Shown one piece after another: positions 6,289 through 56,125 of a stretch of DNA of 64,000 bases. The stretch comes from an uncultured Verrucomicrobiaceae bacterium (GTDB taxonomy: Bacteria > Pseudomonadota > Gammaproteobacteria > Pseudomonadales > CAMLJR01), in NCBI GenBank assembly GCA_964500675.1, contig CAZCNY010000007.1, positions 81,582-145,581 on the forward strand. The letters are read 5' to 3'. A program made the translations under genes and the position numbers. Position 1 is the first letter of the stretch; each line of letters opens with the position of its first letter. Under the pieces are notes generated by a model. The model ran no database searches, was not told the DNA's origin, and worked only from the letters and a program-made list of their open reading frames with translations.

Positions 6289-6306
6289 ATAAGTGCGAGC
6301 ATTGAG

Positions 6307-8051: not shown

Positions 8052-8057
8052 GAAAGC

Positions 8058-14735: not shown

Positions 14736-14772
14736 GACATGTTCCTTGCCAGCGATCAGTGGCTATATGCAC

Positions 14773-15345: not shown

Positions 15346-15369
15346 GATCTTTACTCCGTTGCTCGCTGA

Positions 15370-17469
15370 TTATGCCAAACCAAGTGCGACCAAAATTAAA
15401 TCGATGGCTTTGATGCCGATAAACGGCGCAATGATGCCGCCCAAACCGTAGATCAATAAATTTCTGCGCAGCAAAATCGCCGCGCCGAGTGCGCGATATT
15501 TCACGCCTTTGAGTGCCAGTGGAACCAGCGCGATGATAATCAACGCATTGAAGATCACGGCTGACATCACCGCCGAATTCGGACTCGCCAGATGCATGAT
15601 GTTAAGCGCGGACAATTGCGGGTACGTCGTAATAAACGCTGCAGGAATAATCGCAAAATATTTGGCGATATCATTAGCGATGCTGAATGTCGTCAGCGAG
15701 CCGCGCGTCATCAGCATTTGTTTGCCGGTTTCGACAACCTCGATCAACTTGGTCGGGTTTGAATCGAGATCGACCATGTTGCCCGCTTCTTTTGCCGCCT
15801 GTGTGCCGCTGTTCATCGCGACGGCGACATCGGCTTGCGCGAGTGCGGGCGCATCGTTAGTGCCGTCGCCCGTCATCGCCACCAGTTTGCCCTGCGCTTG
15901 ATATTCGCGAATCAATGCGAGCTTGGCTTCGGGTGTCGCTTCCGCGAGAAAATCATCGACGCCCGCTTCGGCGGCAATGGCCGCTGCGGTTAAGCGATTG
16001 TCGCCCGTGATCATCACGGTTTTGATGCCCATGCGACGCAATTCGGCAAAGCGCTCTTTGATACCGCCTTTGACGATATCTTTTAACTCGATAACACCGA
16101 GCACTTTGGCGCCATCGGCGACCACCAACGGTGTGCTGCCACGACGCGCAACTTCGTCGACGGCTTGCTGAGTCGAGTCGTAAAACAAACCGCCGAGCGT
16201 TTCGATATGTTTGCGAATCGCTTCCGCAGAGCCTTTGCGCAGTTGCCGCTCGCCGCTTTCTTTTTTTAGATCAACATTGGCTGTTTTCAAGTTCACACCG
16301 CTCATGCGCGTCTGTGCAGAAAAATGCACGAAGGTGGCATTGAGCGCGTGCACATCGCGTTCGCGCAAATTGAATTTTTGTTTGGCCAGCACAACGATGC
16401 TGCGACCCTCTGGGGTTTCATCGGCGAGTGAAGATAATTGAGCGGCATCGGCGAGAGCTTCTTCGCTAATACCTTTCGCCGGAATAAATGCGGAGGCTTG
16501 GCGATTGCCCAGCGTGATCGTGCCGGTTTTATCGAGCAGCAAGACATCGACATCGCCCGCCGCTTCGACTGCACGACCCGATGTGGCAATGACATTCGCT
16601 TGCAACATTCGGCTCATGCCGGCAATGCCAATGGCCGATAGCAGACCGCCAATCGTGGTAGGAATCAGACACACGAGCAACGCGATCAACACCGTAACCG
16701 TCACTGGCGAACCGGCGCCCGCTGCGTTGACGCTGTAAATCGAAAACGGCAGCAACGTGACGGTAACGCCGAGAAAGACGATGGTGAGCGCGACAAGCAA
16801 AATCGTGAGCGCAATTTCGTTCGGCGTTTTTTTGCGTTTCGCGCCTTCCACCATCGCGATCATGCGATCGAGAAATGTCTCACCGGGATTGGCGGTAATT
16901 TTCACCACGATCCAATCCGACAACACGCGCGTGCCGCCAGTGACTGAGGAAAAATCGCCGCCCGATTCGCGGATCACCGGTGCCGATTCGCCCGTGATCG
17001 CGCTTTCGTCTACCGACGCGACGCCTTCGATGACTTGTCCGTCCATCGGAATCACATCGCCTGCGTCGACAAGGACGACATCGCCTTTAACCAACGAGGT
17101 CGCTGACAACGGCAAAAATTTAGCGCCATACCTCGGCTCCTGCAGTTTTTTCGCGAGCACGGTTTTTTTCATGCCGCGCAGCGCAGCGGCCTGCGCTTTG
17201 CTGCGGCCTTCGGCGAGCGCTTCGGCAAAATTCGCGAACAGCACGGTGAACCACAGCCACAGCGCAATACCGAGAATAAATCCGGCGGGCGCTTCGCCAT
17301 GCCCCACCAACGCTTCATAACAAAGATACGTGGTGAGAATGCTGCCGATGTACACCACAAACATCACGGGATTACGCCACTGCGTGCGCGGATCGAGTTT
17401 CTTGAAAGCATCGCCAATCGCCGGCACAACTAACGCCGGATCGAGCATCGCTAAACTTTTTTTCGACAT
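15370..17469 (-). CDS. kdpB: K+-transporting P-type ATPase subunit B
   Basis: 699 aa with the P-type ATPase DKTGTIT phosphorylation motif and [12 protein letters not shown] hinge. Confidence 0.96.
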
Positions 17470-17485
17470 GATGATTTCTCCGCGC

Positions 17486-19279
17486 TCAGTGAGCGATCAA
17501 CTGCAAATGTTCAACGATCGGGCCGAGCGCCAAACCCGGAACATAATTGAGTGCGCCAACGAGAATGACAGTGCCTGCGAGCAGAATCACAAACAGTGGA
17601 CCGTGCGTTGGCATCGTGCCCGCACTGACAGCGATGCGTTTTTTCGCAGCGAGTGAACCTGCAATCGCGAGCACGGGGACGATCACGCCGAAGCGGCCGA
17701 ACCACATCGCAATCGCCAGCATGATGTTGTAGAACGGCACGTTGGCGGAAATGCCGGCGAACGCGCTGCCGTTGTTGTTACCGGCTGAGGTGAACGCGTA
17801 ATACACTTCGGAAAATCCGTGCGCGCCCGGATTGAAAATACTGGCGGTGCCGCTCGCACTCACCACAGCGATCGCGGTTCCCGCGAGCACCAGCAGCGGT
17901 GTAATCAGAATCGCGATCGAGATCATTTTCATATCGAACGCTTCGATTTTCTTGCCGACGTATTCGGGCGTGCGACCGATCATCAAACCTGCGATAAATA
18001 CCGCCAGCAATGCAAACACCAGCATGCCGTACAGGCCCGTGCCGACGCCGCCGAACACCACCTCGCCCAATTGCATGAGCGCCAGCGGCACCATGCCGCC
18101 GAGCGGCGTGAATGAATCGTGCATACCATTGACTGCACCGCACGAAGCCGCCGTGGTGATCGCAGCGAATAAGCCCGAATCAGCGATACCGAAGCGCGCT
18201 TCCTTGCCTTCCATATTGCCGCCCGACTGCAATGGCGTTGCGCTTTGGTCGATATTGAATTGTGCAAAGAGCGGATTGCCGTGCTGCTCAAAATGCGTCG
18301 CGGCAATGGCGAACGGAATAAATAAAACCAGCATCGTCGCGAGCACCGCCCAACCCTGCCGCGTATCGCCGACCATACGACCGAACGTGTAACACAGTGC
18401 GCTTGGGATTAGAAAAATCGCCACCATCTGTAGAAAATTGCTGAGCGGTGTGGGATTTTCAAACGGGTGCGCGGAGTTCGCATTGAAAAATCCACCACCG
18501 TTGGTACCGAGCATTTTTATCGCTTCTTGCGAAGCCACTGGCCCCATCGCGAGTGTTTGTGTCTGTGTACTTGCCGCCTCGGTAACCGCATTGCCTTTCT
18601 CATCCTTCACAGGCTGTCCAGCGGCGTCGAGTTTTGCTGTTTGGTATGCGGTGACTTCCAGCGTAGTGACGTCTTTGTACGCATCGAAATTTTGAATAAC
18701 GCCCTGGCTGACAAACGCCAATGCCAGCACGAATGAGAGCGGTAATAAAATAAATAACGTCACGCGCGTCAGATCGACCCAGACATTGCCGATGGTTTTA
18801 ATCGAGTGACGCGCCAGCCCGCGAATCAATGCGATAACCACAACGATGCCGGATGCTGCACTCAAAAAATTCTGCACAGCGAGCGCGAGCATCTGCGTGA
18901 GATAGCTTATCGTCGCTTCGCCGACGTAACCCTGCCAGTTGGTATTCGAAATAAAGCTGACTGCCGTATTGAACGACGAATCGGCACTCACATTCGCCAT
19001 GTGTTGTGGATTGAGCGGCAACCACAATTGCATGCGCTGCAATACGTACACAGACAAGGTGCCGATCAGCGTGAATAACAGCAGCGAAATGGCATAGCGC
19101 GACCAATGCATTTCCTCAGACGCGCGAATACTACAAATTCGATAAATCGCGGCCTCGATGCGTGCAGCAAAACCGAGTTTTCCTTCCATCACGTTGGCGA
19201 TGTAAATGCCAAGCGGTTTCACGCACAATAACAGCACCGCAAAATACAGCACCATAGTGAGCCAGGCGTGGTGTGTCAT
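17486..19279 (-). CDS. kdpA: K+-transporting ATPase subunit A
   Basis: 597 aa polytopic protein, collinear with KdpA (NTNWQGY, GTNGGGF selectivity-filter-like repeats). Confidence 0.95.
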
Positions 19280-19785: not shown

Positions 19786-20377
19786 TTACCGAGACCGCAG
19801 CAATCGCTCGCGAAATTCTCCGGGTGTTAGACCGATCCCGCGCCGGAAGGCAACGCAGAAATTCGATGGCGATGAGAAGCCCAGCGTTTCCGCGATTGCG
19901 GCAACACTTTCATCGGTCGCTAATAAGCGTTTGGCGTGTTCAATCTGTCGCTGCGCAACGTAAGCGCCGATGGAGTGGCCGTAACTGCCAGGGTGCAAGC
20001 CCGCCGTGGGGTTGCGCATCCAACACCACGGTGCCGCGGCGCATCAGTTCGACGGTCAATTGTGTGGTGATGGAATCGACGAGTATTTGACTGGCAAATC
20101 CCGGTTGCCTCGCTTCTTCCGCCAATCTGAGCAGCAGGCTTTGAATGCGTGTGTCCTGCACATCGAGCGCGGCTAGCAATAGATTTTCGGTCGGCTCGGG
20201 GAGGACATCAAATAACTCGATAATGGATTCGCGTTTGAGATGGCAGGTGATCGATGTCAGCGAGGTGCTTTCATCGCTTTCGATCTGTAAATCCAGATCG
20301 GGCGGCGCAATGAAGAAATCGTCGTCACCGCGCGGCGCACGGAAGAAAATATTCAAAAAGTGCCGCTGTCGATACAT
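19786..20377 (-). pseudogene. AraC-family transcriptional regulator, 5'-truncated and internally deleted/frameshifted
   Basis: Two ORF-track pieces in different frames (19940..20377 and 19786..20019). The first ends ...GGLAPWQLRPLHRRLRCAATD*. The second carries only the second HTH half (GHSIGAYVAQRQIEHAKRLLATDESVAAIAETLGFSSPSNFCVAFRRGIGLTPGEFR). About 40 codons that normally hold the first HTH are missing at the junction, and the N-terminal sensing domain is incomplete. Confidence 0.75.
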
Positions 20378-20381
20378 TTAC

Positions 20382-20864
20382 ATGGATGCTTATTTTGTCG
20401 AGTTTATGGTGCCGAGAAGTTCGGCGAGCCCTCAACTCGATTGTACGGGCAGCTATATTTCAAACGGTCAGTTGGGCAATTATTCCTGCATACCGTTTGC
20501 GGATACGCCTAAACAACAATACAGCGTCGGCTTTAATTACAAACTGCCGATCGATAAACAATTTGGTGATGTTGAAGCCGCATTCACTTATAGTCACGTG
20601 GACAAACGTTATACGGCGCCAATAACCGTTCCCCAGGCCGAGCCTGGTGCTTGGCTGGATAGTTTTGGTATCTTGAACGGCAGTATCAGTTGGAGCGAAG
20701 TTTTTAAAACACGGTTCGATTTGCAAGTGTTTGGAACGAATTTAACCAACCAGACCTATCGCGTGTCCAACAGCAATACCTGGAATGAATTGGGTTATCA
20801 AAATACGATTTGGAGTGAGCCTCGCATGTATGGCGTAAAAGCCACGTATCGCTGGGGTGATTAA
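20382..20864 (+). pseudogene. C-terminal ~160-codon fragment of a TonB-dependent receptor
   Basis: The tail of ORF 20145..20864 reads ...YSVGFNYKLPI...LQVFGTNLTNQTYRVSN...SEPRMYGVKATYRWGD. These are typical terminal beta-strands of a TonB-dependent receptor. The plug and most of the barrel are absent, and the upstream part of the ORF is antisense to the AraC remnant. Confidence 0.7.
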
Positions 20865-20882
20865 TAAAAAGGTTGAATACGT

Positions 20883-21587
20883 ATGAATAACAGAGGTCAA
20901 CTTATTCTATTGTGGACAACGCCCGTTGCCGGCGTTTTGTTTTTGCTGGCTTATTTTTTATTTCCGGGGTTTTCGCCGCCGATGTCGCCGACGATGACGC
21001 CGGAGCAGGTCGCTGCGTTTTTCAGGGAGCATATCACCAGCATTCGCGGTGTCGCCATTTTTTGTAACGTCATCGCCGCTACGCTGGTGCCACTGTTTGC
21101 GATCGTCGCCGTGCAGATGCTGCGCGTTGTCAATTCGAGCCCCGTGTTTGCCTACTCTTACATCATCTGTGTGGGAATCGGCATGACGGAATTTATTCTT
21201 GCCGATTACTCGTGGGGTGTTGCGGCGTTCAGGCCCGATCGCGATCCACAGCTGATCAGCTTGCTCAACGATATGGCGTGGTTTTTTTTCATCGCGCCGG
21301 TGGGAACGATCATGGTGCAAAACCTCTGCCTCGCGTTGAGCATCTATCTCGATGCGCGCCCAAAGCCGGTATTTCCGCGCTGGGTGGCGCACTTCAATAT
21401 CGCGACTGCGCTGCTGATGCTGCCCGGTGCATTTTCGATTCTTTACAAAACAGGGCCGCTCGCGTGGGATGGCAGCGTATCGTTTTCGTTGCGTTTAATA
21501 ACCTTTGCAGTCTACGTTGCGGTGATGTTCGTGGTGCTGCTGCGTATCGTGAATCGACAAATTGAAAACGAGGGCGTTGCAGCATGA
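20883..21587 (+). CDS. polytopic membrane protein of unknown function (paralogue A)
   Basis: 234 aa with ~6 hydrophobic segments. It shares PPMSP..(T/S)...VAAF and KTGPLAWDG motifs with the next gene. I recognise no domain. Confidence 0.7.
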   Translation: MNNRGQLILLWTTPVAGVLFLLAYFLFPGFSPPMSPTMTPEQVAAFFREHITSIRGVAIFCNVIAATLVPLFAIVAVQMLRVVNSSPVFAYSYIICVGIGMTEFILADYSWGVAAFRPDRDPQLISLLNDMAWFFFIAPVGTIMVQNLCLALSIYLDARPKPVFPRWVAHFNIATALLMLPGAFSILYKTGPLAWDGSVSFSLRLITFAVYVAVMFVVLLRIVNRQIENEGVAA

Positions 21588-22366
21588 GCGAGTCCATCGC
21601 GATCAGTTTGCACGGCACGCAAAGCGAAAAAGTGCCGTGGTACAAAAATAAAAAGCTCGATCAGTGGATTTGTTTCTGGTGCGTTCCGGTTTTTTATAAT
21701 CTGTTCGGGCTCGTGTTTGTACCGCTCAGCTGGATGATGCCGCCGCGCTCGCCGGCGAATTCGTTGCCCGGCATTGTCGCGTTCATGCAATCGCCTAATC
21801 TGCTGATTGCCTCGACGATCTTGATACTTTCGATCGGGCTGGCGGCCGTTGGAAATGCGGTGTACGTGGTGCAGATGCAGCGCATGTCCGTGAGCCCGGT
21901 ATTGCGCTATGCATTTATGGCGGGCTCGATGACCGGCGCGGTTGTCGGCTGCCTGTTTCCGATGTTCTGTTTTGGTCTGGGCGCTTTTCGCTCGGGCTAT
22001 CGACCTGAAATTTTGCAGATGTTGTACGACTTCGGCTATCTGTCGTTCATCGGTTCGCTGGGTTGTTTCTGCGTGATGTGGTCCTCGCTCGCCTTATCGA
22101 TATTGTTAGATAAAAATAATATTTTGCCCAAGTGGCTCGGCTACTACACGGTGTGGCAGTACGTCACGGAGTTATTCGCCTCGATGGTATGGATCGACAA
22201 AACCGGGCCGTTTGCCTGGGATGGTTTGCTCGCGTTCTGGTTCGACATGGTGATTTACGTGCCGTGGCAATTCATTATTTATTTCTGCATTTACAAGGCC
22301 ATCAAAAAACAGCCGGTGAACGAATTGGCCAATGCGCAGCTCGTACCCAAAGCGACGTATGCCTGA
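21584..22366 (+). CDS. polytopic membrane protein of unknown function (paralogue B)
   Basis: 260 aa. ATGA overlap with paralogue A. Carries MPPRSPANSLPGIVAF and KTGPFAWDG motifs parallel to paralogue A. Confidence 0.7.
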   Translation: MSESIAISLHGTQSEKVPWYKNKKLDQWICFWCVPVFYNLFGLVFVPLSWMMPPRSPANSLPGIVAFMQSPNLLIASTILILSIGLAAVGNAVYVVQMQRMSVSPVLRYAFMAGSMTGAVVGCLFPMFCFGLGAFRSGYRPEILQMLYDFGYLSFIGSLGCFCVMWSSLALSILLDKNNILPKWLGYYTVWQYVTELFASMVWIDKTGPFAWDGLLAFWFDMVIYVPWQFIIYFCIYKAIKKQPVNELANAQLVPKATYA

Positions 22367-22377
22367 GGTGGGTTTCG

Positions 22378-23019
22378 ATGAGCGACGCGACGGTAAATAC
22401 AGAAGAAGCTTCGCCGGCGGCCGGCGCTTTTGATAACAAGAAAGGATCTGATAACAAACAAGCAGCTGCACGGGGGCATCTTCCCGGCTCATCCGCCATG
22501 TGGTTTTTTATCCTCGGCGACTTAATGATTTTTGGTGTTTACTTCATTTGCTATGTGTATTACCGCGGCCAGAACCAGCCGCTGTTTCTGCAAAACCAAC
22601 AACATTTGAATCAGACGGTTGGCGTTATCAATACCGTCATACTGCTGACAAGCTCGCTGTTTGTCGCGCTCGGTACCCAAGCCGCGCGCGCGGGGAAAAC
22701 CAACGATGCCTTTCGCCTGTTCGGCATTGCGTTGGCGTTTGGGGCGTTTTTCCCATTTCTCAAAATGACGGAGTGGATACCCAAAATCAGCGCGGGTATG
22801 ACGCCCGGAGCAAATCTTTTTTTCATGTATTACTACGTGATGACGGGGCTGCATCTGTATCACGTGTTGCTCGGGCTCGTGCTTATCGGTTTTGTCATGT
22901 ATGACTTGCGCAAGTCGAGCCAGCCCAATATTGCGTTTGTCGAAAACGGCGCCATTTATTGGCACATGGTCGATTTGCTCTGGCTGGTTTTGTTCGCGCT
23001 GTTTTATTTAATGAGATAG
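22378..23019 (+). CDS. heme-copper oxidase subunit III-like protein (NorE/NirO/CyoC-like, 5 TM)
   Basis: ORF 22132..23019 trimmed to ATG 22378 (GAGGTGG upstream). HLPGSSAMWFFILGDLMIFG...YYYVMTGLHLYHVLLGL...YWHMVDLLWLVLFALFYL follows the short subunit-III pattern. Confidence 0.8.
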   Translation: MSDATVNTEEASPAAGAFDNKKGSDNKQAAARGHLPGSSAMWFFILGDLMIFGVYFICYVYYRGQNQPLFLQNQQHLNQTVGVINTVILLTSSLFVALGTQAARAGKTNDAFRLFGIALAFGAFFPFLKMTEWIPKISAGMTPGANLFFMYYYVMTGLHLYHVLLGLVLIGFVMYDLRKSSQPNIAFVENGAIYWHMVDLLWLVLFALFYLMR

Positions 23020-23022
23020 AGA

Positions 23023-23301
23023 ATGACGGCATACCTGCGTAATCCGCTAACTTACGTCTGGGCTTTTTTGACGCTCATTACGATCGCGTCGTGGTGGATC
23101 AGCCGAAGCAGCGGTGCTGAGTTTAAAATCAATCCGGCAGTTACCGCCGGTGTGTTGCTGATCGCGCTGATTAAATCGCGGCTGGTGCTGCGCTATTTCA
23201 TGGAGGTGCGCACCGCGCCGGCATGGTTGCGCTGGGTTTGCGACGGCTGGCTTATGGTTGCTTTCGGACTGATTTTCGCGTTCTATTACGTCTCGCTGTG
23301 A
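23023..23301 (+). CDS. small membrane protein, prokaryotic cytochrome oxidase subunit IV-like (NorF/NirP/CyoD-like)
   Basis: 92 aa with 3 TM segments, starting 3 nt after the subunit-III-like gene. Size, position and hydrophobicity match subunit IV family proteins. The sequence-level call is from memory only. Confidence 0.6.
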   Translation: MTAYLRNPLTYVWAFLTLITIASWWISRSSGAEFKINPAVTAGVLLIALIKSRLVLRYFMEVRTAPAWLRWVCDGWLMVAFGLIFAFYYVSL

Positions 23302-23352: not shown

Positions 23353-24411
23353 ATGCGCGTAGGGTTACATTTGGGGTATCAGAATCTCAACGGCATGTCC
23401 GATGCCGAGAAATTCATGCAGGAAACCCGGTTCGCTATTGAGGCCGAGGCGATGGGTTTCGATTATGTCGGCCCGGTCGAGCATCACTTTACCGATTATG
23501 CGGCGTGCCCCGATCCTTTTCAGATGTTGGCCTACGTCGCGGCGAAAACAAAAACAATAAAACTGATTACGGCCGCGACCATTTTGCCGTGGAATAATCC
23601 GCTGCGCGTGGTGGAGCAGGCGATCGAACTCGATATTTTGAGCGAAGGGCGTTTGATACTCGGCATGGGTCGCGGCGCGGCGCGCCGGGAATTCAAATCG
23701 TTCGGCGTCGAACTCAAAGATTCGCGCGAAATGTTCGATGAAGCTGCGCTCATCGTTATGCAGGGCACCGAAACCGGTATCGTCGAAGCCGACGGCCAAT
23801 GGTTCAAGATTCCGCGCACCGAAATTCGTCCGCGTCCGTTCAAATCCTTTAAAGATCGCACCGTCATGGTGTCGATGTCACCTTCGTCGGTGGACGTGGC
23901 GGCGCGCTATGGGTTGCAAACGCTGCGCTTTTCGCAGGGCGATTGGCGCAATGCGATTCCCGAAATCAATCAATACCGAAAAACATTCCTCGAATTGCAC
24001 AAGCGCGAAGCGCCACCGTTTATTATTTCCGACTTCGTGCTGTGCTTTAACGATAAGCGCAGGGTGACCGAATATTGCGATAAATATTTTTCGCGCATGT
24101 TCGCGACGGTCGCCAATCATTACGAATTCATGAGCGCCCATTTCAAGGAGCTGCCGTCGTATTCGACCTATGCCTACATGGGTCAAATGGCGGAAGCCGC
24201 CGGCGGCCCCGACAAGGCTTATCGCGATTACATCGGCGGCAATATGATCGGCACGCCCGAAGAATTGGTGGAGTACCATCTCAACCGCGCGTCGATGGTT
24301 GGCGATTACGAAATTCTCGCGAATTTCAGTTTTGGCGGTTTGCCTTACGAATTGGTTTACGAGCAGGCCAAATTGTTCGCGGACAAGGTTTTGCCGAAAC
24401 TCAAAGGCTAA
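23353..24411 (+). CDS. LuxA-like LLM-class flavin-dependent monooxygenase
   Basis: 352 aa. The FDYVGPVEHHFTDYAACPDPFQMLAYVAA and GRLILGMGRGAARREF blocks parallel bacterial luciferase alpha (LLEHHFTEFG..., GRFRFGICRG). GGAG RBS present. Confidence 0.85.
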   Translation: MRVGLHLGYQNLNGMSDAEKFMQETRFAIEAEAMGFDYVGPVEHHFTDYAACPDPFQMLAYVAAKTKTIKLITAATILPWNNPLRVVEQAIELDILSEGRLILGMGRGAARREFKSFGVELKDSREMFDEAALIVMQGTETGIVEADGQWFKIPRTEIRPRPFKSFKDRTVMVSMSPSSVDVAARYGLQTLRFSQGDWRNAIPEINQYRKTFLELHKREAPPFIISDFVLCFNDKRRVTEYCDKYFSRMFATVANHYEFMSAHFKELPSYSTYAYMGQMAEAAGGPDKAYRDYIGGNMIGTPEELVEYHLNRASMVGDYEILANFSFGGLPYELVYEQAKLFADKVLPKLKG

Positions 24412-24439
24412 TCAAATAATAACGTAGGGGATTCAGTCG

Positions 24440-25195
24440 ATGGCGGAAAACAAACGCATTGCGCTGGTGACTGGCGGCGGTGTCGGCATGGGCGCGGCGG
24501 CGTGTCAGCGTTTCGCCAGAGATGGCATGGCGGTGGCTGTGCTCGATATCAACGGTGATGCCGCTGCAAGCGTGGCGGCTGCAATCAATGCGGCTGGCGG
24601 TCGAGCACTGGCGGTTGTCGCGGATGTCTCCGATCGAGCGCAGGTGGAAATTGCCGTCGATAAAATTCGCGCAGCGCTCGGCCCGATTACCGTGTTGGTA
24701 AATAACGCCGGGGTCGAGAGCTTTATGCCATTTGAGGAAATCGGCGACGATACCTGGGATCGGTTGATGGCGGTCAATCTCAAGGGTGCGTACATCGTCA
24801 CCCAGGTTGTGCTGCCGGATATGTTCGCGTGCGGCTGGGGACGAATAATCAACATCTCTTCGTTCGGTGCGCAAATCGGCGCGCCGACGATGGTGCATTA
24901 CTCGGCATCGAAAGGCGGCATTATTTCTATGACAAGATCGCTGGCATTAGAACTCGGTCGAAGAGGTATTACCGTGAATTCAATTGCGCCAGGCTTCATC
25001 GATACGCCGATGGCGCGTCGAGCGATAGCGGGTAATAAATTTCCTATGCCCATCGAGGACATGCTCAAGTCATATCCCATTCCGCGTTTGGGAAAACCGG
25101 AGGAAGTGGCGGCGGCCTGCGCGTTTTTCGCCTCCGAAGAGGCGGGATATATCACCGCGCAACTGTTGGGTGTTAATGGCGGAACGGCGGTTTAG
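24440..25195 (+). CDS. SDR-family oxidoreductase (FabG-like)
   Basis: 251 aa with TGGGVGMG cofactor motif, NNAG, and the S...YSASK catalytic triad context. Confidence 0.9.
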   Translation: MAENKRIALVTGGGVGMGAAACQRFARDGMAVAVLDINGDAAASVAAAINAAGGRALAVVADVSDRAQVEIAVDKIRAALGPITVLVNNAGVESFMPFEEIGDDTWDRLMAVNLKGAYIVTQVVLPDMFACGWGRIINISSFGAQIGAPTMVHYSASKGGIISMTRSLALELGRRGITVNSIAPGFIDTPMARRAIAGNKFPMPIEDMLKSYPIPRLGKPEEVAAACAFFASEEAGYITAQLLGVNGGTAV

Positions 25196-25260: not shown

Positions 25261-25389
25261 TTAGCTCTTAGGGTAAAACGAAACATCGGCACTCGCGCGG
25301 AAATTGACTACACGCAGTCCGGCGGGACCGGCCGCAAAACCGTAGTAGGTATTGCCGGGAATATAATGGGATGTACTCGCTTGCGCCAT
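25261..25389 (-). CDS. unlisted 42-codon ORF (MAQASTSHYIPGNTYYGFAAGPAGLRVVNFRASADVSFYPKS)
   Basis: Below the ORF-track size cutoff. The ATG is preceded by cccGAGGAGttatgaatt (strong SD, 8-nt spacing) and lies 35 nt downstream of the LLM stop on the same strand. I recognise no homologue. Confidence 0.4.
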   Translation of the reverse strand: MAQASTSHYIPGNTYYGFAAGPAGLRVVNFRASADVSFYPKS

Positions 25390-25424
25390 AATTCATAACT
25401 CCTCGGGAACTAGACACGATTACA

Positions 25425-26333
25425 TCAAAGTTTTGCAATCACCTCCGCTCCAAACCGCGCGGCGTTATCGCACCATTCCGCGCGCGTTTTGCCATCGATG
25501 CTGATGCCCGCGCCGATCACGCCCATTTCCTTGAATTTGCCGATCTTGTCGATGAGTTGTGGCGGAGTCCATTTTTCTCCCGGTTGCGTGATGCTGGCGA
25601 GAAATATCTGCGGCAGGTTGTTGCGTCCGACTTTTTCGCAGTGTTCGCGCATGTAAGCGATGCCGTCGGCGAGGTCGAGTTCGCTGGTCATCGCGGCGGT
25701 GCGTGCGGTCGATGAGACTTGTGCGGGCGTGAAGAAGGGATTCCAGCCGTCGGCCATTTCGACGACGCGGCGAATCGCGCGTTTGGAATTGCCGCCGATA
25801 TAGAGAAGCGGATGCGGCGTTTGCACCGGACGCGGACGCATGCGATTGCCGCGCGCGCTGTAGCCGGTGCCTTCGAAATTAAATTCTTCGCCGGTCCACG
25901 CGAGCTTCATCGCTTGCAGATATTCATCCATGGTTTCGTTGCGGCGTTCGAAATCTGCGCCGAGCGCGAAATATTCGCCTTTCAAATAACCCGCACCGAA
26001 GCTCAACGTTAAACGGCCGTTGGAAAATACATCGAGCGTCGCCGCTGCGCGCGCGACAATGAATGGATTGCGATACGGCAAAACTAAAATGCCGGTTTGC
26101 AGGCGCAATTTTTTCGTGTGCGCGGCGACGAGGCTCAGCATCACGAACGGATCTTGCGCATCGTGGCCGCCGGCATCGAGCCACTTGGCCGTCGGGCAGG
26201 GATGGTCGGTGACATTGCCGCCATTAAATCCAGCGCGCTCTACCGTTTGGCTGATTTCGGCAACCGCATCCATGGTGAGAAATTCTTGCGGAGCAAACGT
26301 GTGATCGAAGGGGAGCGTTACGTTGAGTTTCAT
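25425..26333 (-). CDS. LLM-class oxidoreductase, probably F420-dependent (Rv2161c-like subgroup)
   Basis: ORF 25425..26354 (TTG) trimmed to ATG 26333 (MKLNVTLPF...). NVTDHPCP, LQTGILVLPYRNP and GRLTLSFGAGY blocks are typical of the short (~300 aa) LLM group annotated as F420-dependent. The cofactor assignment is an inference. Confidence 0.75.
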   Translation of the reverse strand: MKLNVTLPFDHTFAPQEFLTMDAVAEISQTVERAGFNGGNVTDHPCPTAKWLDAGGHDAQDPFVMLSLVAAHTKKLRLQTGILVLPYRNPFIVARAAATLDVFSNGRLTLSFGAGYLKGEYFALGADFERRNETMDEYLQAMKLAWTGEEFNFEGTGYSARGNRMRPRPVQTPHPLLYIGGNSKRAIRRVVEMADGWNPFFTPAQVSSTARTAAMTSELDLADGIAYMREHCEKVGRNNLPQIFLASITQPGEKWTPPQLIDKIGKFKEMGVIGAGISIDGKTRAEWCDNAARFGAEVIAKL

Positions 26334-26377
26334 GATGAGTCTCTTTAATTTCAAAAAATCTTTTCGAAAAAAATAAA

Positions 26378-27235
26378 TTAATTTTCAATATCGCCAACCA
26401 GCGTCCACTTGCCCGCTTTGTTGCGAATCCATCCGCTCGATGCCCAGGTGCCGCCATCGACGGGAATCACGGTGCCCGTCACGTATTCGCTCATTTTCGA
26501 GGCGAGAAATACCGCGACATTGCCGCACTCGGTATCGATGCCGGGACGGCTGAGTGGAATGCGACGCGCGGTGGCGTCGGCTTGCGCAGGTGTCGGTTGA
26601 ATCCATGTCGAAGGATCGACCGGGCCTTTGATATTGCCGCTGAGTCCTGGCGTTAGGGTGTAATCGGGCGCAATCGCGTTGACGCGAATACCGTGATCGG
26701 CAAGCTCCAGTGCGAGCGAGCGCGTGAAATTGAGCATGCCGGCTTTACATGCGGCGTACACGGAAAAATACGGCGCCGCGCGCGATGCCTCGATACTCGC
26801 GACGTTGATAATGGCGCCGCCGCGTTTGCCATCGATGATGTGCGGCGCTGCCGCGGACGTTGCCGCGAGCATGCTGACTAAATTCAAATCGATCGCGCGG
26901 CGCCACGCGCGTTCGGATTGCTCGATAAACGGTTTGGGTGCGACACCGCCGGCGTTGTTGACGAGAATATCGATGCGCCCGAAATGTTTGTGCGTGCTTT
27001 CGACCATCACGCGAATCTGATCGGTGTCGGTGACGTCGGTCGTCACGGGCAACGCTGCGCGTCCCATTTCGCGCACACGCGCCGCCGTTTCCTCGCAGCG
27101 CTCGGGAACGATATCGGCGATGACAATATTTGCGCCCGCCGCTGCGAACGCGAGTGCAATCGCTCTGCCGATGCCGCCACCGCCGCCGGTGACGATGGCG
27201 ACTTGATCCGTTAAAAGTATGTCGGTTGTCTGCAA
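26378..27235 (-). CDS. SDR-family oxidoreductase
   Basis: 285 aa with VAIVTGGGGGIGRAIA, NNAG and YAACKAG catalytic motif. TTG start with GAGAGA upstream. Confidence 0.88.
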   Translation of the reverse strand: MQTTDILLTDQVAIVTGGGGGIGRAIALAFAAAGANIVIADIVPERCEETAARVREMGRAALPVTTDVTDTDQIRVMVESTHKHFGRIDILVNNAGGVAPKPFIEQSERAWRRAIDLNLVSMLAATSAAAPHIIDGKRGGAIINVASIEASRAAPYFSVYAACKAGMLNFTRSLALELADHGIRVNAIAPDYTLTPGLSGNIKGPVDPSTWIQPTPAQADATARRIPLSRPGIDTECGNVAVFLASKMSEYVTGTVIPVDGGTWASSGWIRNKAGKWTLVGDIEN

Positions 27236-27254
27236 AATAAAATTCTCTCAAACT

Positions 27255-27279
27255 AAACCAAATCAAACCAAATCAAATC
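27255..27279. repeat. short tandem decamer in an intercistronic spacer
   Basis: AAACCAAATC AAACCAAATC AAATC lies between the unknown 360-aa gene and the SDR gene. Confidence 0.6.
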
Positions 27280-27311
27280 AAGGCGAATGTCGGTGCTGTC
27301 AGCAAATAGCA

Positions 27312-28394
27312 TCAGCCAATAGTCGTCAGACTTTCATGTGATGAGCGCTCCATCATGCCATAGGCGGTTTGATCATCCCAGGTATAACGCACGCCCGTTT
27401 GCTGCAAGTTGAGGCCGCCGATATCGGGATTGCCGACGCGGAACGTCGACAACGCCGTCACGCCTTTGATGCGCGTAATGCCTAAATCGGATTCGAGTTC
27501 CAATGATGCATCGTCGCCTTCGCCGATAATACGGCGCAGCCACGGAATTTTCACGGCGCGCGCAGGATGCATTTTGCCATCTTGAAAAATATAACCCTCG
27601 TTCAATGCGGTGCCATCTTCGCGCGGCGGATAAGTGATATAGCCGAACGCGCGGCCATCGGGAAATACCGCGGATTGCCAGCAGTGCCCGCGAAAGCCGC
27701 CGAGTGGGCGCACGCTCTGGCGTTTAATGCGTAATCCAGAGCCTTTGAATTCACGCTCTTTGCCATCGAGATAAATCTCTTTACCATCAACAGAAAAAAA
27801 ACCGCGCGCGCGAAATAATTGTTCGAAGCGCCAGCCGATGCCCATGTACGCGGCTTCGGCAGCTTCCTTCTCCGACATTTTCGCCACTTTCTCCGGCGAA
27901 AAATCCTGCACCCACGCCGGCGTGACCATTTCCAATTCGACGTCGAAACGCACCTGCGTGCGCTTGTTCGGATCGATGGTTTTGTGAATTTGCTGATCCA
28001 CAGTGCCATCGATTGCGCTGCCATCGAAGGTCATGCGCCATTTGCGAAATGGCTCTAAGCACTGAAATGCAATCGGCCCGGCACCTAAGATTGCGGGTTT
28101 GCCGCTGGCATCGAAAGGCGAATGCGCAGCGCCCATACCGGCGCCATTCAAAATGCGTCCGCCCGCAATAGCAAAATTGCCTTGCACGCGACGGTTGTCC
28201 CACGACGACGCTTCGGCTTCGATGCCGACACGCGGAAACGCGAACGCGCCGTTTTCTTCGTACAGCCATACCGATGTGCTCTCGCGCATGTCTGGATTCG
28301 CGGGTTTTTCCGCAAAAAATAAATCGTGCTCGGGTGTGAGCCCATTCATCATTTGTTCGAGTGCTATTTGTTTGGGTGTTAAGGACATTTTCAT
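27312..28394 (-). CDS. conserved-looking protein of unknown function (360 aa)
   Basis: ORF 27312..28529 trimmed to MKMSLTPKQ... at 28394. This forms an ATGA overlap with the sulfotransferase stop and has GGGGA upstream. Soluble, beta-rich composition. I can name no motif. Confidence 0.65.
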   Translation of the reverse strand: MKMSLTPKQIALEQMMNGLTPEHDLFFAEKPANPDMRESTSVWLYEENGAFAFPRVGIEAEASSWDNRRVQGNFAIAGGRILNGAGMGAAHSPFDASGKPAILGAGPIAFQCLEPFRKWRMTFDGSAIDGTVDQQIHKTIDPNKRTQVRFDVELEMVTPAWVQDFSPEKVAKMSEKEAAEAAYMGIGWRFEQLFRARGFFSVDGKEIYLDGKEREFKGSGLRIKRQSVRPLGGFRGHCWQSAVFPDGRAFGYITYPPREDGTALNEGYIFQDGKMHPARAVKIPWLRRIIGEGDDASLELESDLGITRIKGVTALSTFRVGNPDIGGLNLQQTGVRYTWDDQTAYGMMERSSHESLTTIG

Positions 28395-29536
28395 TTTCCC
28401 CGCTTGGTCCACGCCGTCATGCGCGCGACATAATCCGAAAATAATTCGCGCACCTGATTGAGATCGACACCGTAAGCGCTCGCTTCTTTTTTTGAACTCG
28501 GTTCGCGATTTTCCGAATTCTGCTTCCACCAGCGCGCCATATTGGTTTCGAACTCGGCGCTGATCGGTTCGCCGAGCCAGTCATATAAACCGCGCACTTC
28601 GCGGATGGGGTCTTCGTGCATGGCGCGAAAATGAATATCGTAGAAACGTGCGTTATGGTTGGCCGCGTCGCGGAATTTCAGCGCGCGCTTCATTCCCTCG
28701 GACCACTGCCGAATATTCAGCTCCGCCACCGAAGCGATATCGAGATGTTCGGTGAATTTGCCGATGATATCGGCATACACTTCGATCACCGACAGCATGA
28801 CATCGGTGGGGTCGCGGTGCGTCATCACAAAACGCGCATCGGGAAAAGCGTTGTTGAGATGATCCAGATAAATTAAATGCGTCGGGCATTTGAGCCGCCA
28901 CGATTTTTCCGGCATGCGCCACTGCAATAATTTCAGCGCGCGGCGCTCGTACAGATACGTCGATGTCAGATCGGCGTCGAGCAGCCAATCGGCGTAAGAT
29001 GGAATTTGCGCGAACGCGATAAATATTTGCGATTTAAAATCGAGAGCCATTAAATCCTGACATTCTGCGGGCGCGTCTGCGCCGGAGGGCACGTGCGTTT
29101 TCAATCCGGTTGCGCGCTGCATCGCGGCGTCGTGATCGATTTTTGTATTTGCCAGGCAGGGCGGTGGGCACGGTTGCGCTGCTTCCATTCTGCGCAGCGA
29201 ACGCGCGTTGGGATCTTCCGCCAACAGAAATGACAGTACCGTCGAGCCCGTGCGCGGCAGGCTGATGCCGATCAGCGGCGCCTTGATCGACACCGCGTCG
29301 ATTTCCGGATATCGGCGATACCAGTCTTCAATTTGCAAACGCTGCTTGAGATGGTTGAGGATGCGCTCGCGCAGAATCTTGTCGCCGAGTGCATTGAGTT
29401 TCGCCTCGTTATTCAGCGCATCGACGAGAATTTCGAGACCTTCGAGGAACGTGTCCGCGCCGAAATCGTTGAGCCCGGTTTCAGCTTTGGCGATATCGAG
29501 CAACGTTTTATATCCTTCCACGGTCGAGCTCCTCAT
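28391..29536 (-). CDS. sulfotransferase-family protein (PAPS-dependent, Stf-like)
   Basis: 381 aa with an LPRTGSTVLSFLL 5'-PSB loop and a later THRDPTDVMLS block, typical of the bacterial Sulfotransfer_3-type family. Confidence 0.8.
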   Translation of the reverse strand: MRSSTVEGYKTLLDIAKAETGLNDFGADTFLEGLEILVDALNNEAKLNALGDKILRERILNHLKQRLQIEDWYRRYPEIDAVSIKAPLIGISLPRTGSTVLSFLLAEDPNARSLRRMEAAQPCPPPCLANTKIDHDAAMQRATGLKTHVPSGADAPAECQDLMALDFKSQIFIAFAQIPSYADWLLDADLTSTYLYERRALKLLQWRMPEKSWRLKCPTHLIYLDHLNNAFPDARFVMTHRDPTDVMLSVIEVYADIIGKFTEHLDIASVAELNIRQWSEGMKRALKFRDAANHNARFYDIHFRAMHEDPIREVRGLYDWLGEPISAEFETNMARWWKQNSENREPSSKKEASAYGVDLNQVRELFSDYVARMTAWTKRGK

Positions 29537-29656
29537 TGCGTCGGGTAGGTGAAGAGGTTACCTAATTTTAGCGAGTATCGTTATTAAGGTTCGTTAATCA
29601 TTAAACTCCGCTAAGATTTACGCGGCATTTTCAGAACAACGGCAAAGGAGTTAGCC

Positions 29657-31342
29657 ATGGCAGATACCAAACAAAGACTGGTCCAGGATGATGGACAGGT
29701 TAAGCGCCCCATGGTGGGCTGGTACGACCCCGGCCAATTAATTCAAACCGCGGTTTCCGTTGTCGTCTCGACATGCTTCGGCCGCCACGCCGATTTTCGA
29801 CTCATGGAAGCGTTGGCCGTCAACAGCGAAGTGCATCGTTTCGATGAGTGCATCGATGGCGCATTTTGGTTTGATTATACCGCCGACGCCGGTGACGGCT
29901 GGAATTCCAGTTATGCCGTCGCGTATTGGCTGGCGCAACCGACACTGCATCTGCGCGATGAAAACGGCGGTGAACACCGTACCGAGCGCGGAAAAATTCT
30001 CGTGTTCGGCGGCGATGAGGTGTATCCCGTTGCGAGCCGATCGGCCTATCAAGAAAAATTGATCGATGTCTACGAGGCAGCGCTGGCGCAAACGCCCGAA
30101 AAAAATTCGCCGACGGTATTCGCGATTCCGGGCAATCACGATTGGTACGACAGCCTCGCCGCGTTCATGCGTTTGTTTTGTTCCGAGCGCTGGTTCGGCG
30201 GGTGGCGGACGCAACAAAAGGCGAGTTATTTCGCCGCGAAATTGCCGCGCGGCTGGTGGCTGATCGGCACCGATATTCAATTGGATTCCGATATCGACGA
30301 TGCACAGGTGCGATTTCTGCGCAGCGTCGCGGAGCAAATGCAAGAACGCGATCGCATCATTCTCTGTGTTGCGGAACCGCATTGGATTTACGCAAAAGCG
30401 TACGGCATCGACGACAAGGATTACAACGAAAGCAATCTCGCCTTCATCGAGGAAAAGATTTTCAAGCGCAAGATAGCCGCTTTTGTCGCGGGCGATCTGC
30501 ATCATTATCGCCGGCATGCGGCGCCCGACGGCGTGCAGAAAATTACCGCGGGGGGTGGCGGCGCGTTTTTGCATCCCACGCACGGACCCGATGTGGAAAA
30601 TCTCGCCGACGATTTCAAGCTGGCGAAAAGTTTTCCCGACCAGAAAATTTCGCGCCGCCTGGCGTGGCGCAATGCAATGTTTCCGGCGCTCAACCCGACG
30701 TTCGGCGTGGTCACGGGAATTTTGTATCTGCTCACCGGGTGGGCTACGCATTTGGATTTATCCACGTATTCGTTGCGCGAGATAAAACCGGCGCTCGGCG
30801 CATCGGTGAACAAAGCGCTGAATGAACCGCTCGCGGCATTTTGGATAACGCTGGTATTTCTCGGGTTTTATTTGTTCACCGATACGCACTCGAAATGGTA
30901 TCGCTATAGCGCGGGTACGCTGCATGGCCTCGCTCATTTGCTGGCGGTATTTAGCCTCGGTTGGCTCAGCAGTAAATTGACCGTAACGCTGCTCGGTTTC
31001 GCCTTCGGTTCGACGGCGCAATTGTTGAGTGCGGGGCTTGCGATGTTTATCGGCGGTTGGCTGGCGGGTTCGATCATCATGGGGCTGTATCTGCTGATTT
31101 CGCTGAATGGCTTCAAGCATCACACCAACGAGGCCTTTTCGTCGCTGAAGATCGAGGACTGGAAAAATTTTCTGCGCATGAAAATCGATGCCGATGGCAG
31201 TTTGACGATTTTCGCGGTGGGCTTGCGACGCGTGCCGCGCCGATGGAAAAAAATCGGCGAGCCCGGCGCGCGCAGCTGTATCATTCCCGATGATAAAAGC
31301 GCAACCGAGCCGCATCTGATCGATAAGGTCGTGCTTAGATGA
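29657..31342 (+). CDS. metallophosphoesterase fused to a C-terminal polytopic membrane domain
   Basis: 561 aa with calcineurin-like motifs DAGDG, GGDEVYP, IPGNHDWYD and AGDLHHY, followed by ~5 hydrophobic segments (aa ~350-490). Confidence 0.8.
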   Translation: MADTKQRLVQDDGQVKRPMVGWYDPGQLIQTAVSVVVSTCFGRHADFRLMEALAVNSEVHRFDECIDGAFWFDYTADAGDGWNSSYAVAYWLAQPTLHLRDENGGEHRTERGKILVFGGDEVYPVASRSAYQEKLIDVYEAALAQTPEKNSPTVFAIPGNHDWYDSLAAFMRLFCSERWFGGWRTQQKASYFAAKLPRGWWLIGTDIQLDSDIDDAQVRFLRSVAEQMQERDRIILCVAEPHWIYAKAYGIDDKDYNESNLAFIEEKIFKRKIAAFVAGDLHHYRRHAAPDGVQKITAGGGGAFLHPTHGPDVENLADDFKLAKSFPDQKISRRLAWRNAMFPALNPTFGVVTGILYLLTGWATHLDLSTYSLREIKPALGASVNKALNEPLAAFWITLVFLGFYLFTDTHSKWYRYSAGTLHGLAHLLAVFSLGWLSSKLTVTLLGFAFGSTAQLLSAGLAMFIGGWLAGSIIMGLYLLISLNGFKHHTNEAFSSLKIEDWKNFLRMKIDADGSLTIFAVGLRRVPRRWKKIGEPGARSCIIPDDKSATEPHLIDKVVLR

Positions 31343-32871: not shown

Positions 32872-33591
32872 TCAATTAACCTTTGGCTTTTCGAGATAAC
32901 ATTCTCTTAGTAAGTTTTCTAATTTAATAAACGTGTCATCGATTAGCTTTTCGGCACCAATCAGTACTCCAACTTTGTCGCCTTTATTAAAGCAGGGTAA
33001 CTGTTTAACGGCTGCTTCGGGTAAATAGAACTCAATATTGTCTGTTCCATTGGTAAAGTCGAACCAATGCTCTGCTGTACTGAATTCATTACTGTAGTGA
33101 TAAACGCCAGCCCTGTATTCGGCAAGCTTGTTGATCCAACTACTGTGTAGGGACTTTACTGATGCGGCCGTTTTTGGAAATCCGAGATGGTTGTTTCTTA
33201 AGGTTTGTTGAAGACTGTTCCATTTCATGATTTTTGACGTATTTTCTGTAATTATCATCGTTATTAAAGAGGCGGAGTAATCGATCAGCGAAATTAAATT
33301 AAAAATAACATCATCAAAGTTGAATGAGATTGGAAATAGATGGTTAATTGCAGCTGGGTAGATGTCGTCTCGGGTTTTTTGAAGGGAGATCGTATAGATG
33401 GCGTTGTTGAGAGTTGCTTTTAATGCGTTGTAATTCCATTGGACGGCGGATGCTCTATAGGCCACTGCATTGCTTCGCTCGGTTAAGATGGTTCTAGTGG
33501 CGGTTGCAGATCCAGAGTAATGTTCATTTAAGTGAGTGATCAGATAACCTCTGATTCTATTTTCGTATTTGCGAAACTCTACATCTTGCAT
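32872..33591 (-). CDS. AT-rich orphan protein (239 aa), possible HEPN-like domain
   Basis: Intact ORF with GGTGA RBS. Three 60-nt lines inside it count 30%, 42% and 30% G+C, against 57% for a glpK line. Contains LAEYRAGVYHY (R160-x4-H165). I recognise no homologue. Confidence 0.6.
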   Translation of the reverse strand: MQDVEFRKYENRIRGYLITHLNEHYSGSATATRTILTERSNAVAYRASAVQWNYNALKATLNNAIYTISLQKTRDDIYPAAINHLFPISFNFDDVIFNLISLIDYSASLITMIITENTSKIMKWNSLQQTLRNNHLGFPKTAASVKSLHSSWINKLAEYRAGVYHYSNEFSTAEHWFDFTNGTDNIEFYLPEAAVKQLPCFNKGDKVGVLIGAEKLIDDTFIKLENLLRECYLEKPKVN

Positions 33592-56061: not shown

Positions 56062-56125
56062 TCTATAAATAGTGGCAAGAAATCGCATCCCCGCACTAGC
56101 CATCTCCACTTCATCTTGCGTTTTA

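Follow-up and report, generated by a model that had tools for sequence, protein, structure and literature searches.

Organization of the Locus

The 64,000-nt stretch of contig CAZCNY010000007.1 analysed here, from an uncultured gammaproteobacterium, is referred to as the window, and all coordinates are those of the window. Between 25261 and 29536, and on the minus strand throughout, it carries a set of four genes followed by a 42-aa open reading frame (ORF). The four genes encode a Stf-type sulfotransferase dependent on 3′-phosphoadenosine-5′-phosphosulfate (PAPS), a protein of the DUF7064 family, a short-chain dehydrogenase/reductase (SDR) and a luciferase-like monooxygenase-type oxidoreductase (LLM) of the TIGR03619 group (Table 1). 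The locus is a four-gene accessory operon made of two conserved two-gene units: unit A comprises the PAPS-type sulfotransferase and the DUF7064 protein, and unit B the SDR and then the TIGR03619 LLM. Its closest relatives are found in metagenome-assembled genomes (MAGs) of Spongiibacteraceae, which places the window in a gammaproteobacterium of the Cellvibrionales type.

A preliminary description of this DNA had presented five same-strand ORFs, separated after the first junction by gaps of 76, 44 and 35 nt (DUF7064-SDR, SDR-LLM and LLM-micro-ORF), as a single operon. All of these ORFs exist, and only the last of them, the micro-ORF, is not an operon gene. The ATGA overlap on which translational coupling had been proposed is likewise present at the Stf/DUF7064 junction (...GGAAAATGAAAATGTCC...) when the first ATG of DUF7064 is used. 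Homologue N-termini align to the second ATG, which begins 3 nt past the Stf stop codon, and the predicted coupling is tight whichever ATG is used. The sulfotransferase measures 376 aa according to the gene caller and 381 aa as an ORF.

A scan with Rfam gave no match above chance in the locus, and no consensus promoter was found in the 120-bp region upstream of the Stf gene. In L001 and L002, the closest loci of the same order, a gene for an AraC-family regulator (7728-8846 and 7736-8590, respectively) lies between the metallophosphoesterase-like gene and Stf. AraC genes occur in 13 of 80 loci, and none is present in the 120 bp that occupy this position in the window, so the regulator would have been lost from the window or never acquired there.

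The micro-ORF deserves separate consideration, as it might encode a small peptide, either a RiPP-like precursor (a peptide made by ribosomes and then post-translationally modified) or a regulator, modified by Stf, SDR and LLM. An AGGAG-like sequence precedes its ATG and the automatic gene caller also called it. On the other hand, no family match was obtained in library searches, and no related locus has a counterpart downstream of LLM, even in L001 and L002 (78-82% nucleotide identity), where DNA homology ends at 25429, the LLM stop codon. Its GC content over the three codon positions is flat (0.53/0.53/0.53), as opposed to about 0.58/0.45/0.65 in the neighbouring genes. A conserved short ORF with a coding signature beside the modifying enzymes, as a RiPP-like small-peptide operon would have, is not found at the locus. 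The micro-ORF was accordingly rejected as a gene and, since it is not conserved and lacks coding composition, it has probably arisen by chance in the intergenic region between convergent genes; a peptide role seems to us vanishingly improbable.

Table 1. Features of the operon region and of the F420 biosynthesis cluster in the window.
Feature	Coordinates	Strand	Support or remark
Stf-type PAPS-dependent sulfotransferase, 381 aa	28391-29536	-	Sulfotransfer_3, PDB alignments
DUF7064 protein, 360 aa, two-domain beta fold	27312-28394	-	Pfam DUF7064, AlphaFold 2, Foldseek
Classical SDR, 285 aa	26378-27235	-	adh_short, motifs
LLM oxidoreductase, TIGR03619 (F420_Rv2161c) group, 302 aa from its ATG	25425-26333	-	TIGR03619
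Micro-ORF, 42 aa, convergent intergenic region	25261-25389	-	ORF only; probably not a gene
Divergent intergenic region, 120 bp, upstream of the Stf gene	29537-29656	.	Presumed promoter region
Fno, NADPH:F420 oxidoreductase, first gene of the cluster	5596-6288	+	PF03807, E 2.9e-19
CofE, F420-0:gamma-glutamyl ligase, 255 aa, ligase domain only	6307-7074	+	PF01996, E 3.4e-73
CofD/FbiA	7071-8051	+	PF01933, E 1.1e-42
CofC/FbiD guanylyltransferase	8058-8801	+	PF01983, E 3.3e-29
FbiC (CofG/CofH fusion), FO synthase	8668-11235	+	Radical_SAM x2, CofH_C

The Sulfotransferase and Its PAPS Supply

The first protein of unit A matches the Pfam family Sulfotransfer_3 (PF13469) with an E-value of 5.6e-37 (128.5 bits, cutoff 27), and it gives full-length alignments to the PDB entries 2z6v (E 1.7e-53, residues 13-370) and 2zq5 (E 3.2e-42). 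Its PRTGST sequence aligns to PRTGTT/VRTGTT of solved mycobacterial Stf structures, and its THRDP sequence to AHRDP/THRPV. By analogy with other sulfotransferases, we take the former to be the 5′-phosphosulfate-binding loop and the latter the 3′-phosphate-binding motif.

Genes for PAPS synthesis (cysD and cysN-APS-kinase, the latter including adenosine-5′-phosphosulfate kinase, with cysQ in two cases) adjoin the module in five loci: a Sphingomonas paeninsulae plasmid, Pseudofrankia, Streptomyces and two metagenome contigs. The gene order in Pseudofrankia and Streptomyces is Stf-DUF7064-cysD-cysNC. On the S. paeninsulae plasmid, cysD, cysN-APS-kinase and cysQ adjoin DUF7064-Stf-SDR, and the same region carries a cytochrome P450, a transporter of the major facilitator superfamily (MFS), a glucose-methanol-choline (GMC) oxidoreductase and a second DUF7064 gene. 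Because the PAPS motifs are kept and dedicated PAPS-supply genes adjoin the module, PAPS-dependent sulfation is very likely a real step of the pathway.

The DUF7064 Protein and Its Likeness to a Phosphosteroid Lyase

The 360-aa protein had been singled out as the most likely novel component of the operon, an assessment that is borne out here. It matches Pfam DUF7064 (PF23212) over residues 234-352 with 28.5 bits (cutoff 24.7). The same model is matched by 18 of 44 diverse relatives, four of which also match DUF7065, and the protein family amounts to about 800 clusters at 50% identity (E 1e-3 or better). The AlphaFold 2 model displays a two-domain beta fold with a mean predicted local confidence (pLDDT) of 93.6. 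When it was compared with the PDB by Foldseek, as had been suggested earlier for this protein, the top four matches were all 25-phosphosteroid lyase (25-PSL), with E-values of 1.3e-10 to 3.2e-10 and template-modelling (TM) scores of 0.60-0.61. AttH NE1406, fungal decalin pericyclases/Diels-Alderases and kievitone hydratase rank below it.

It has been established that 25-PSL acts together with a 25-hydroxysteroid kinase in Sterolibacterium denitrificans, where kinase and lyase carry out the two-step dehydration of a tertiary steroid alcohol (PMC8449060). Single-sequence and shallow-profile searches with the DUF7064 protein gave no sequence match to 25-PSL. A profile built from the 44 diverse relatives retrieved it from the PDB weakly (E 6.8e-4, 21.7 bits), as the sole match below E 0.1. 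The resulting alignment consists of three collinear stretches that cover the family motifs R189-x-x-Q192-L, G220-x-R222-x-[H/R/K]-R-x-G-x-R229 and G346-M-x-E349, in which R189/Q192, R222/R229 and G346-M-x-E349 do not vary within the family. On this basis, the DUF7064 protein would be a remote relative of 25-PSL and a candidate sulfate-ester C-O lyase.

Outside the module, L044, L047, L050, L060 and L065, which are Novosphingobium and other alphaproteobacterial loci without an adjacent sulfotransferase, have DUF7064 paralogues as tandem pairs immediately downstream of TonB-dependent receptors. A recurrent 447-aa neighbour (cluster 15) was considered as a kinase that might replace Stf, and was discarded for want of Pfam or PDB support.

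The SDR-LLM Pair and Its Link to F420

The SDR matches adh_short with an E-value of 1.5e-56 (191 bits), and its translation contains TGGGGGIG, corresponding to the Rossmann motif TGxxxGxG, and YAACK, corresponding to the catalytic YxxxK. The LLM scores 229.6 bits against TIGR03619 ("F420_Rv2161c"; cutoff 166.9), the next model being TIGR03560 with 123.6 bits. These scores, together with that for Sulfotransfer_3, agree with the family labels that the Stf, the SDR and the F420-type LLM had been given before. To our knowledge, no TIGR03619 member has an established substrate.

Two collections of loci bear on the function of the pair. One was anchored on LLM and comprises 80 metagenome loci, of which 23 have at least 5 kb on both sides and are called long; the other was anchored on DUF7064 and comprises 80 loci, with one genome per species. 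An SDR orthologue lies immediately upstream of LLM in 40 of the 60 LLM-anchored loci with enough flank, and the two enzymes form a near-obligate pair. At least two F420 biosynthesis genes are present in 13 of the 23 long contigs; DUF7064 and Stf occur in six of the 23, both sets in four and neither set in eight. In the DUF7064-anchored collection, F420 genes are found in 9/20 loci with LLM versus 2/60 without it (Fisher p 3e-5).

Elsewhere these genes stand in much closer association than they do in the window. An operon of the form fno-cofC-SDR-LLM recurs in many soil contigs; in L002 the F420 operon begins 1 kb beyond LLM; and in Sphingobium sufflavum cofE-cofD-cofC-SDR-LLM faces DUF7064. 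Co-directional superclusters of at least ten genes occur in L087 and L013, where the run includes Stf, DUF7064, SDR, LLM, fno, cofC, fbiC, cofE and cofD, and in L169 (Cellvibrionaceae SEMH9), with fno, a cofC/fbiC fusion, Stf, DUF7064, SDR and LLM. Because loci with LLM are enriched in F420 genes and the LLM scores well against TIGR03619, the dependence of the LLM on F420 is the best-supported single inference of this work.

The window itself contains an F420 biosynthesis cluster, fno-cofE-cofD-cofC-fbiC, at 5596-11235 on the plus strand. The preliminary description had placed such a cluster 14 kb away; its five genes lie 14.2 kb from the LLM stop codon, and the link is much stronger than this distance suggests, with orthologues of the LLM and SDR standing beside or inside F420 operons in many lineages. 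What F420 does for Proteobacteria and other Gram-negative producers has yet to be explained (PMC8498797, PMC8764529). A search for proteobacterial plasmids with LLM as query returned only actinobacterial paralogues, below 41% identity.

Conservation and Rearrangement of the Module

In the DUF7064-anchored collection, a Stf homologue is directly adjacent to DUF7064 on the same strand in 45 of the 80 loci, and lies no more than 2.5 kb from it in 52 of the 70 that could be evaluated. Within 5 kb of DUF7064, LLM orthologues (at least 55% identity) are present in 20 loci and SDR orthologues in 16. At least five gene orders are seen, namely Stf-DUF-SDR-LLM, DUF-Stf-SDR-LLM, Stf-SDR-LLM-DUF, Stf-DUF facing LLM-SDR, and DUF facing LLM-SDR without Stf. 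A third anchor was provided by three look-ups of close homologues of the window Stf. All three show Stf, then a 344-345-aa protein, then (SDR)-LLM, and F420 genes adjoin two of them. The 344-345-aa proteins of L169 and L171, the two compared, are 40-43% identical to the DUF7064 protein of the window.

The linkage goes beyond chance, since one and the same module emerges from searches with three independent anchors, and the homologues are not scattered through other genomes as unlinked genes. The module was recovered in Gamma- and Alphaproteobacteria, and SDR-Stf-DUF7064 versions with a different SDR in Actinobacteria, among them a plasmid of Mycolicibacterium madagascariense in which ferredoxin-P450 genes lie upstream of Stf-SDR-DUF7064. 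Found commonly in several orders of the Gamma- and Alphaproteobacteria, it is no mycobacterial peculiarity. We regard it as a pair of units, Stf+DUF7064 and SDR+LLM, that re-associate time and again.

It could be argued that the four genes are mere neighbours, without a shared pathway or transcript, that travel together on islands rich in SDR, LLM and sulfotransferase genes. In these taxa SDR, LLM and Sulfotransfer_3 each form a large family of paralogues, no signal of a promoter or terminator is usable to delimit a transcript, and there are signs of horizontal transfer, such as the 80% identity of a second LLM between gamma- and alphaproteobacterial MAGs. Against this, orthologues keep 55-93% identity through repeated re-association, in different orders and across classes and phyla; the three independent anchors agree; and the genes are closely packed, with gaps of -4 to 76 nt in the window and of 5-65 nt in L007 and L169. 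Mere co-location is thus very improbable.

Stf and DUF7064, the halves of unit A, have not diverged in step. In L003, L004 and L006 the DUF7064 protein is 77% identical to that of the window and Stf only 44%, and L169-L171 show the opposite pattern (Stf 64-70%, DUF7064 40-43%), which points to recombination between paralogous Stf-DUF7064 pairs. Cellvibrionaceae SEMH9 has two Stf-DUF7064 loci (L054 and L169). In L171, a Povalibacter contig, a 41-aa ORF at 8175-8300, between DUF7064 and LLM, is an SDR remnant in which an N-terminal TGGGGGIGRAIA motif is joined to a C-terminal WTL..GD tail; the SDR has therefore been deleted in this lineage.

A Possible Activate-and-Eliminate Pathway

The following scheme would bring the four proteins together. 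In a first step, Stf would sulfate a hydrophobic alcohol with PAPS; this substrate is probably taken up from outside, and a P450 probably hydroxylates it beforehand in some relatives. In a second step, the DUF7064 protein would eliminate the sulfate to leave an alkene, in a sulfate-based version of the "activate and eliminate" dehydration by which the Sterolibacterium kinase and lyase operate. The SDR and the LLM would perform the flanking redox steps; chemical reasoning suggests, as one possible scheme, that a neighbouring alcohol is oxidized to a ketone and that the enone so formed is then reduced by hydride. The LLM would use F420H2, regenerated from NADPH by Fno, and the module would be a main user of F420 in the physiology of these Proteobacteria. 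Taken as a whole, the mechanism of sulfation, sulfate elimination and F420-dependent flanking redox is offered tentatively, as a reading that we hold to be plausible and yet a little short of an even chance.

The suggestion of sulfate as a leaving group comes from the nearest solved relative of DUF7064, a lyase whose reaction drives out a phosphate ester group. As to the physiological context, L007 has a tight operon composed of TonB receptor-P450-DUF7064-Stf-SDR-LLM, and other loci contain a P450, a ferredoxin, transporters of the MFS type and regulators of the TetR or AraC families. The recurrence of TonB receptors, P450s and AraC/TetR regulators suggests uptake and catabolism rather than biosynthetic tailoring.

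Several observations weigh against the proposed scheme. At the level of the operon, promoter and terminator scans of the locus gave no signal above chance, co-transcription being deduced from spacing alone, and in some loci, e.g., in Sphingobium, DUF7064, LLM and SDR occur without a nearby Stf. Concerning DUF7064, a literature search found no paper on the family and no biochemistry for any of its members; its similarity to 25-PSL is remote (about 15% identity, profile E about 1e-3); and enzymes of the same fold include hydratases and pericyclases, so that elimination is one option among several. Residues separating Stf-linked from Stf-less DUF7064 proteins, which were sought as a test for a sulfate site, were not found. 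In the GSR-D-RSWGVR sequence of 25-PSL, the Asp, present in entry 9fzn and replaced by Asn in the product-complex entry 9g4c, is presumably catalytic. This Asp aligns to I223, in a family column (T19/I12/V9/D2) that is not conserved; R222 and R229, which flank I223, are conserved in DUF7064, as is G346-M-x-E349. The catalytic details of DUF7064 would differ from those of 25-PSL, since the Asp position is here variable, hydrophobic or Thr. With respect to unit B, the sequence neighbours of the LLM in the PDB are a mix of enzymes that use flavin mononucleotide (FMN) and F420, the F420 assignment of TIGR03619 derives from comparative genomics and not from assays, and the roles given to SDR and LLM come from chemical reasoning only. 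Finally, a probe with M. tuberculosis KshA found no match in the window or the 80 loci. A steroid substrate was considered and is unsupported, there being no KshA genes nearby and the PDB neighbours of the SDR being generic.

Some of these points would suit a different arrangement, in which Stf makes a stable sulfated metabolite, DUF7064 acts earlier, and the SDR and F420-dependent LLM tailor the scaffold. DUF7064 would then be a hydratase, similar to CrtC or kievitone hydratase, that makes the tertiary alcohol acceptor, or else an isomerase or cyclase. The presence of kievitone hydratase and pericyclases within the fold and the lack of conservation of the 25-PSL Asp are in keeping with this arrangement, and so are the cysD/cysNC/cysQ genes seen here beside sulfotransferases. 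Such dedicated genes are typical of sulfated-metabolite biosynthesis (Nod factor, sulfolipid SL-1), and a P450 next to Stf resembles the Cyp128-Stf3 pair of sulfomenaquinone synthesis. However, the solved protein that comes nearest in both fold and profile is a lyase and not a hydratase; no polyketide synthase, nonribosomal peptide synthetase, terpene synthase or crt gene was found in the neighbourhoods examined; no exporter is consistently present; and the TonB receptors and AraC/TetR regulators suggest uptake and catabolism. We therefore consider a sulfated end product unlikely. The earlier proposal of a sulfated metabolite obtained through F420H2-dependent redox chemistry retains its F420 link, which is strongly supported, as is the conserved linkage; on present evidence, a sulfated metabolite is less likely than sulfate as a leaving group.

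The elimination scheme provides a first functional hypothesis for the DUF7064 family and ties it to the just-solved 25-PSL. If it is true, chemistry of this kind would no longer be confined to anaerobic steroid degraders, nor to phosphate as the leaving group, sulfate being used as well. The scheme also offers a functional lead for Stf-type sulfotransferases without an assigned acceptor, the actinobacterial ones included. The module is a conserved and genetically linked candidate for a role of F420 in Proteobacteria, and a test of it needs four proteins and one cofactor. A bolder and somewhat more doubtful proposition is that Stf and DUF7064 form the first sulfate-based dehydratase pair, the PAPS sulfotransferase feeding a 25-PSL-like lyase of sulfate esters, and that, together with the SDR and the F420-dependent LLM, they make up the pathway that led Alpha- and Gammaproteobacteria to acquire F420 biosynthesis and to retain it. 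Were this the case, cofactor, PAPS supply and client pathway would form a self-contained, horizontally mobile cassette.

A Role in F420 Biosynthesis as an Alternative

The proximity of unit B to F420 genes admits another explanation, namely that the SDR-LLM pair belongs to F420 biosynthesis itself, e.g., as dehydro-F420-0 reductase or as supplier of 2-phospho-L-lactate (2-PL), its fusion with Stf-DUF7064 being secondary. In about 18 metagenome loci, SDR-LLM is the last pair of fno-cofC-SDR-LLM operons or stands directly before fno. Furthermore, the window cluster has a stand-alone CofE of 255 aa and contains no FbiE/nitroreductase (NTR) gene or domain. A saturated lactyl tail might come in this organism from 2-PL, from 3-phosphoglycerate (3-PG), or from phosphoenolpyruvate with a further reductase. 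The literature describes the 2-PL source and the dehydro-F420 reductase of Gram-negative producers as unresolved (PMC8764529; PMC8498797).

Against this, the window, L001, L007 and L170 have the pair together with Stf-DUF7064 in one operon, at a distance from F420 genes, and in 8 of the 23 long loci it occurs without F420 genes nearby. TIGR03619 members abound in Actinobacteria, where FbiB is already present. A biosynthetic role would also leave the need for two redox enzymes unexplained, and adjacency fits both explanations, given that clients often cluster with cofactor genes. We regard this alternative as improbable; should it nevertheless hold, the SDR-LLM pair would fill the F420 side-chain step in organisms without FbiE. 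A related idea, in which Stf, DUF7064 and LLM would convert a 3-PG-type F420 tail into a lactyl tail, was dropped because the phosphodiester of 3PG-F420 is on C3, not C2 (PMC8498797), and because Stf-DUF7064-SDR is also found without any F420 genes, beside P450 and cysDNQ.

Within the cluster, the cofC and fbiC ORFs overlap in the window, and they are fused as one protein of 984 aa in L169. The true start of FbiC is probably near 8800, its homologues being 808-812 aa long. Between the F420 cluster and the module lie a kdp operon, with kdpDE/kdpABC within 11332-19279, and a cox-like cluster of small size. This region is rearranged among close relatives: LLM is followed directly by kdpE/kdpD in L001 and by the F420 operon in L002.

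Comparison with Known Systems

Among the closest counterparts of unit A is the Sterolibacterium 25-PSL system (PDB 9fzn, 9g2i, 9g4c), in which, as proposed for unit A, a transferase adds an anionic ester to an alcohol and a separate C-O lyase then gives an alkene. 25-PSL and DUF7064 share the two-domain beta fold (TM 0.60) and, in the profile alignment, the arginine-rich RxxQL, GxRx[R/H]xxGVR and GMxE motifs. They differ in sequence, at about 15% identity and with the Asp altered in 9g4c not conserved in DUF7064, and in their partners, a PAPS sulfotransferase in the window and an ATP kinase in Sterolibacterium. While Stf and DUF7064 genes are adjacent, no lyase candidate lies near the Sterolibacterium kinase gene (PMC8449060). 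Moreover, the hosts of the module are aerobes, and F420 redox partners are added. AttH-like enzymes (NE1406, 2ich; kievitone hydratase, 7a0q; CghA, Phm7 and Fsa2, which are decalin-forming pericyclases of fungi) share the overall fold of DUF7064 (Foldseek E 5e-9 to 5e-6) and act on hydrophobic alkene or alcohol substrates, but they score below 25-PSL in structure, give no sequence-profile match and have no group-transfer partner.

In M. tuberculosis, Rv3531c-Rv3530c-Rv3529c constitutes the Stf1 operon, a member of the KstR regulon, and the structure of Stf1 is 2zq5. Its genes, for a 375-aa protein (Rv3531c), an SDR and a Stf, are a translationally coupled trio, an architecture similar to that of the locus of the window. 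Stf1 is homologous to the window Stf (E 3e-42) and the SDRs are 32% identical, but the M. tuberculosis operon has no LLM gene. Rv3531c was ruled out as a DUF7064 homologue (BLASTP E 45, hhalign probability 0.1%), and the operon is an architectural analogue only. True DUF7064 versions exist in other actinobacteria, namely the M. madagascariense plasmid, Pseudofrankia and Streptomyces.

The sulfotransferase-thioesterase (ST-TE) of CurM and the olefin synthases sulfates a hydroxyl with PAPS and then loses the sulfate to give an alkene, the elimination in CurM being decarboxylative and performed by the thioesterase domain. In the Cyp128-Stf3 route to sulfomenaquinone, P450 hydroxylation is followed by Stf sulfation and the sulfate stays on. 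Neither the CurM nor the sulfomenaquinone route uses an AttH-fold lyase or F420. Regarding the known F420-dependent LLMs (Fgd, Mer, Adf and hydroxymycolic acid dehydrogenase), the window LLM shares their TIM-barrel fold family; it differs in having a gammaproteobacterial host and orthologues built into proteobacterial F420 operons.

Neighbouring Genes of the Window

Upstream in window coordinates, the cox-like cluster at 20145-23301 (plus strand) encodes three proteins without family match (239, 234 and 260 aa) followed by CyoC/COX3-like and COX4_pro-like subunits, and contains no genes for subunits I or II. L006 also has COX3, COX4 and the 260-aa protein, at about 9 kb from its module. At 23353-25195, and convergent on the operon, lie a second LLM (352 aa, LuxA-like, with no subgroup above cutoff) and a second SDR, which is FabG-like. 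Orthologues of this second LLM with 80-81% identity are present in alphaproteobacterial MAGs (L008, Acidocella, and L031), 5-6 kb from DUF7064, which suggests its horizontal transfer.

On the other side, and divergent from the operon, the interval 29657-31342 encodes a protein of 561 aa, weakly metallophosphoesterase-like in its N-terminal domain and hydrophobic in its C-terminal half, which is conserved beside glpK in L001 and L002 (73% identity). Further along, a 239-aa ORF without Pfam match occupies 32872-33591. This stretch, which may be foreign DNA, and that at 55000-58000 have a GC content of 0.45-0.51, as compared with about 0.56.

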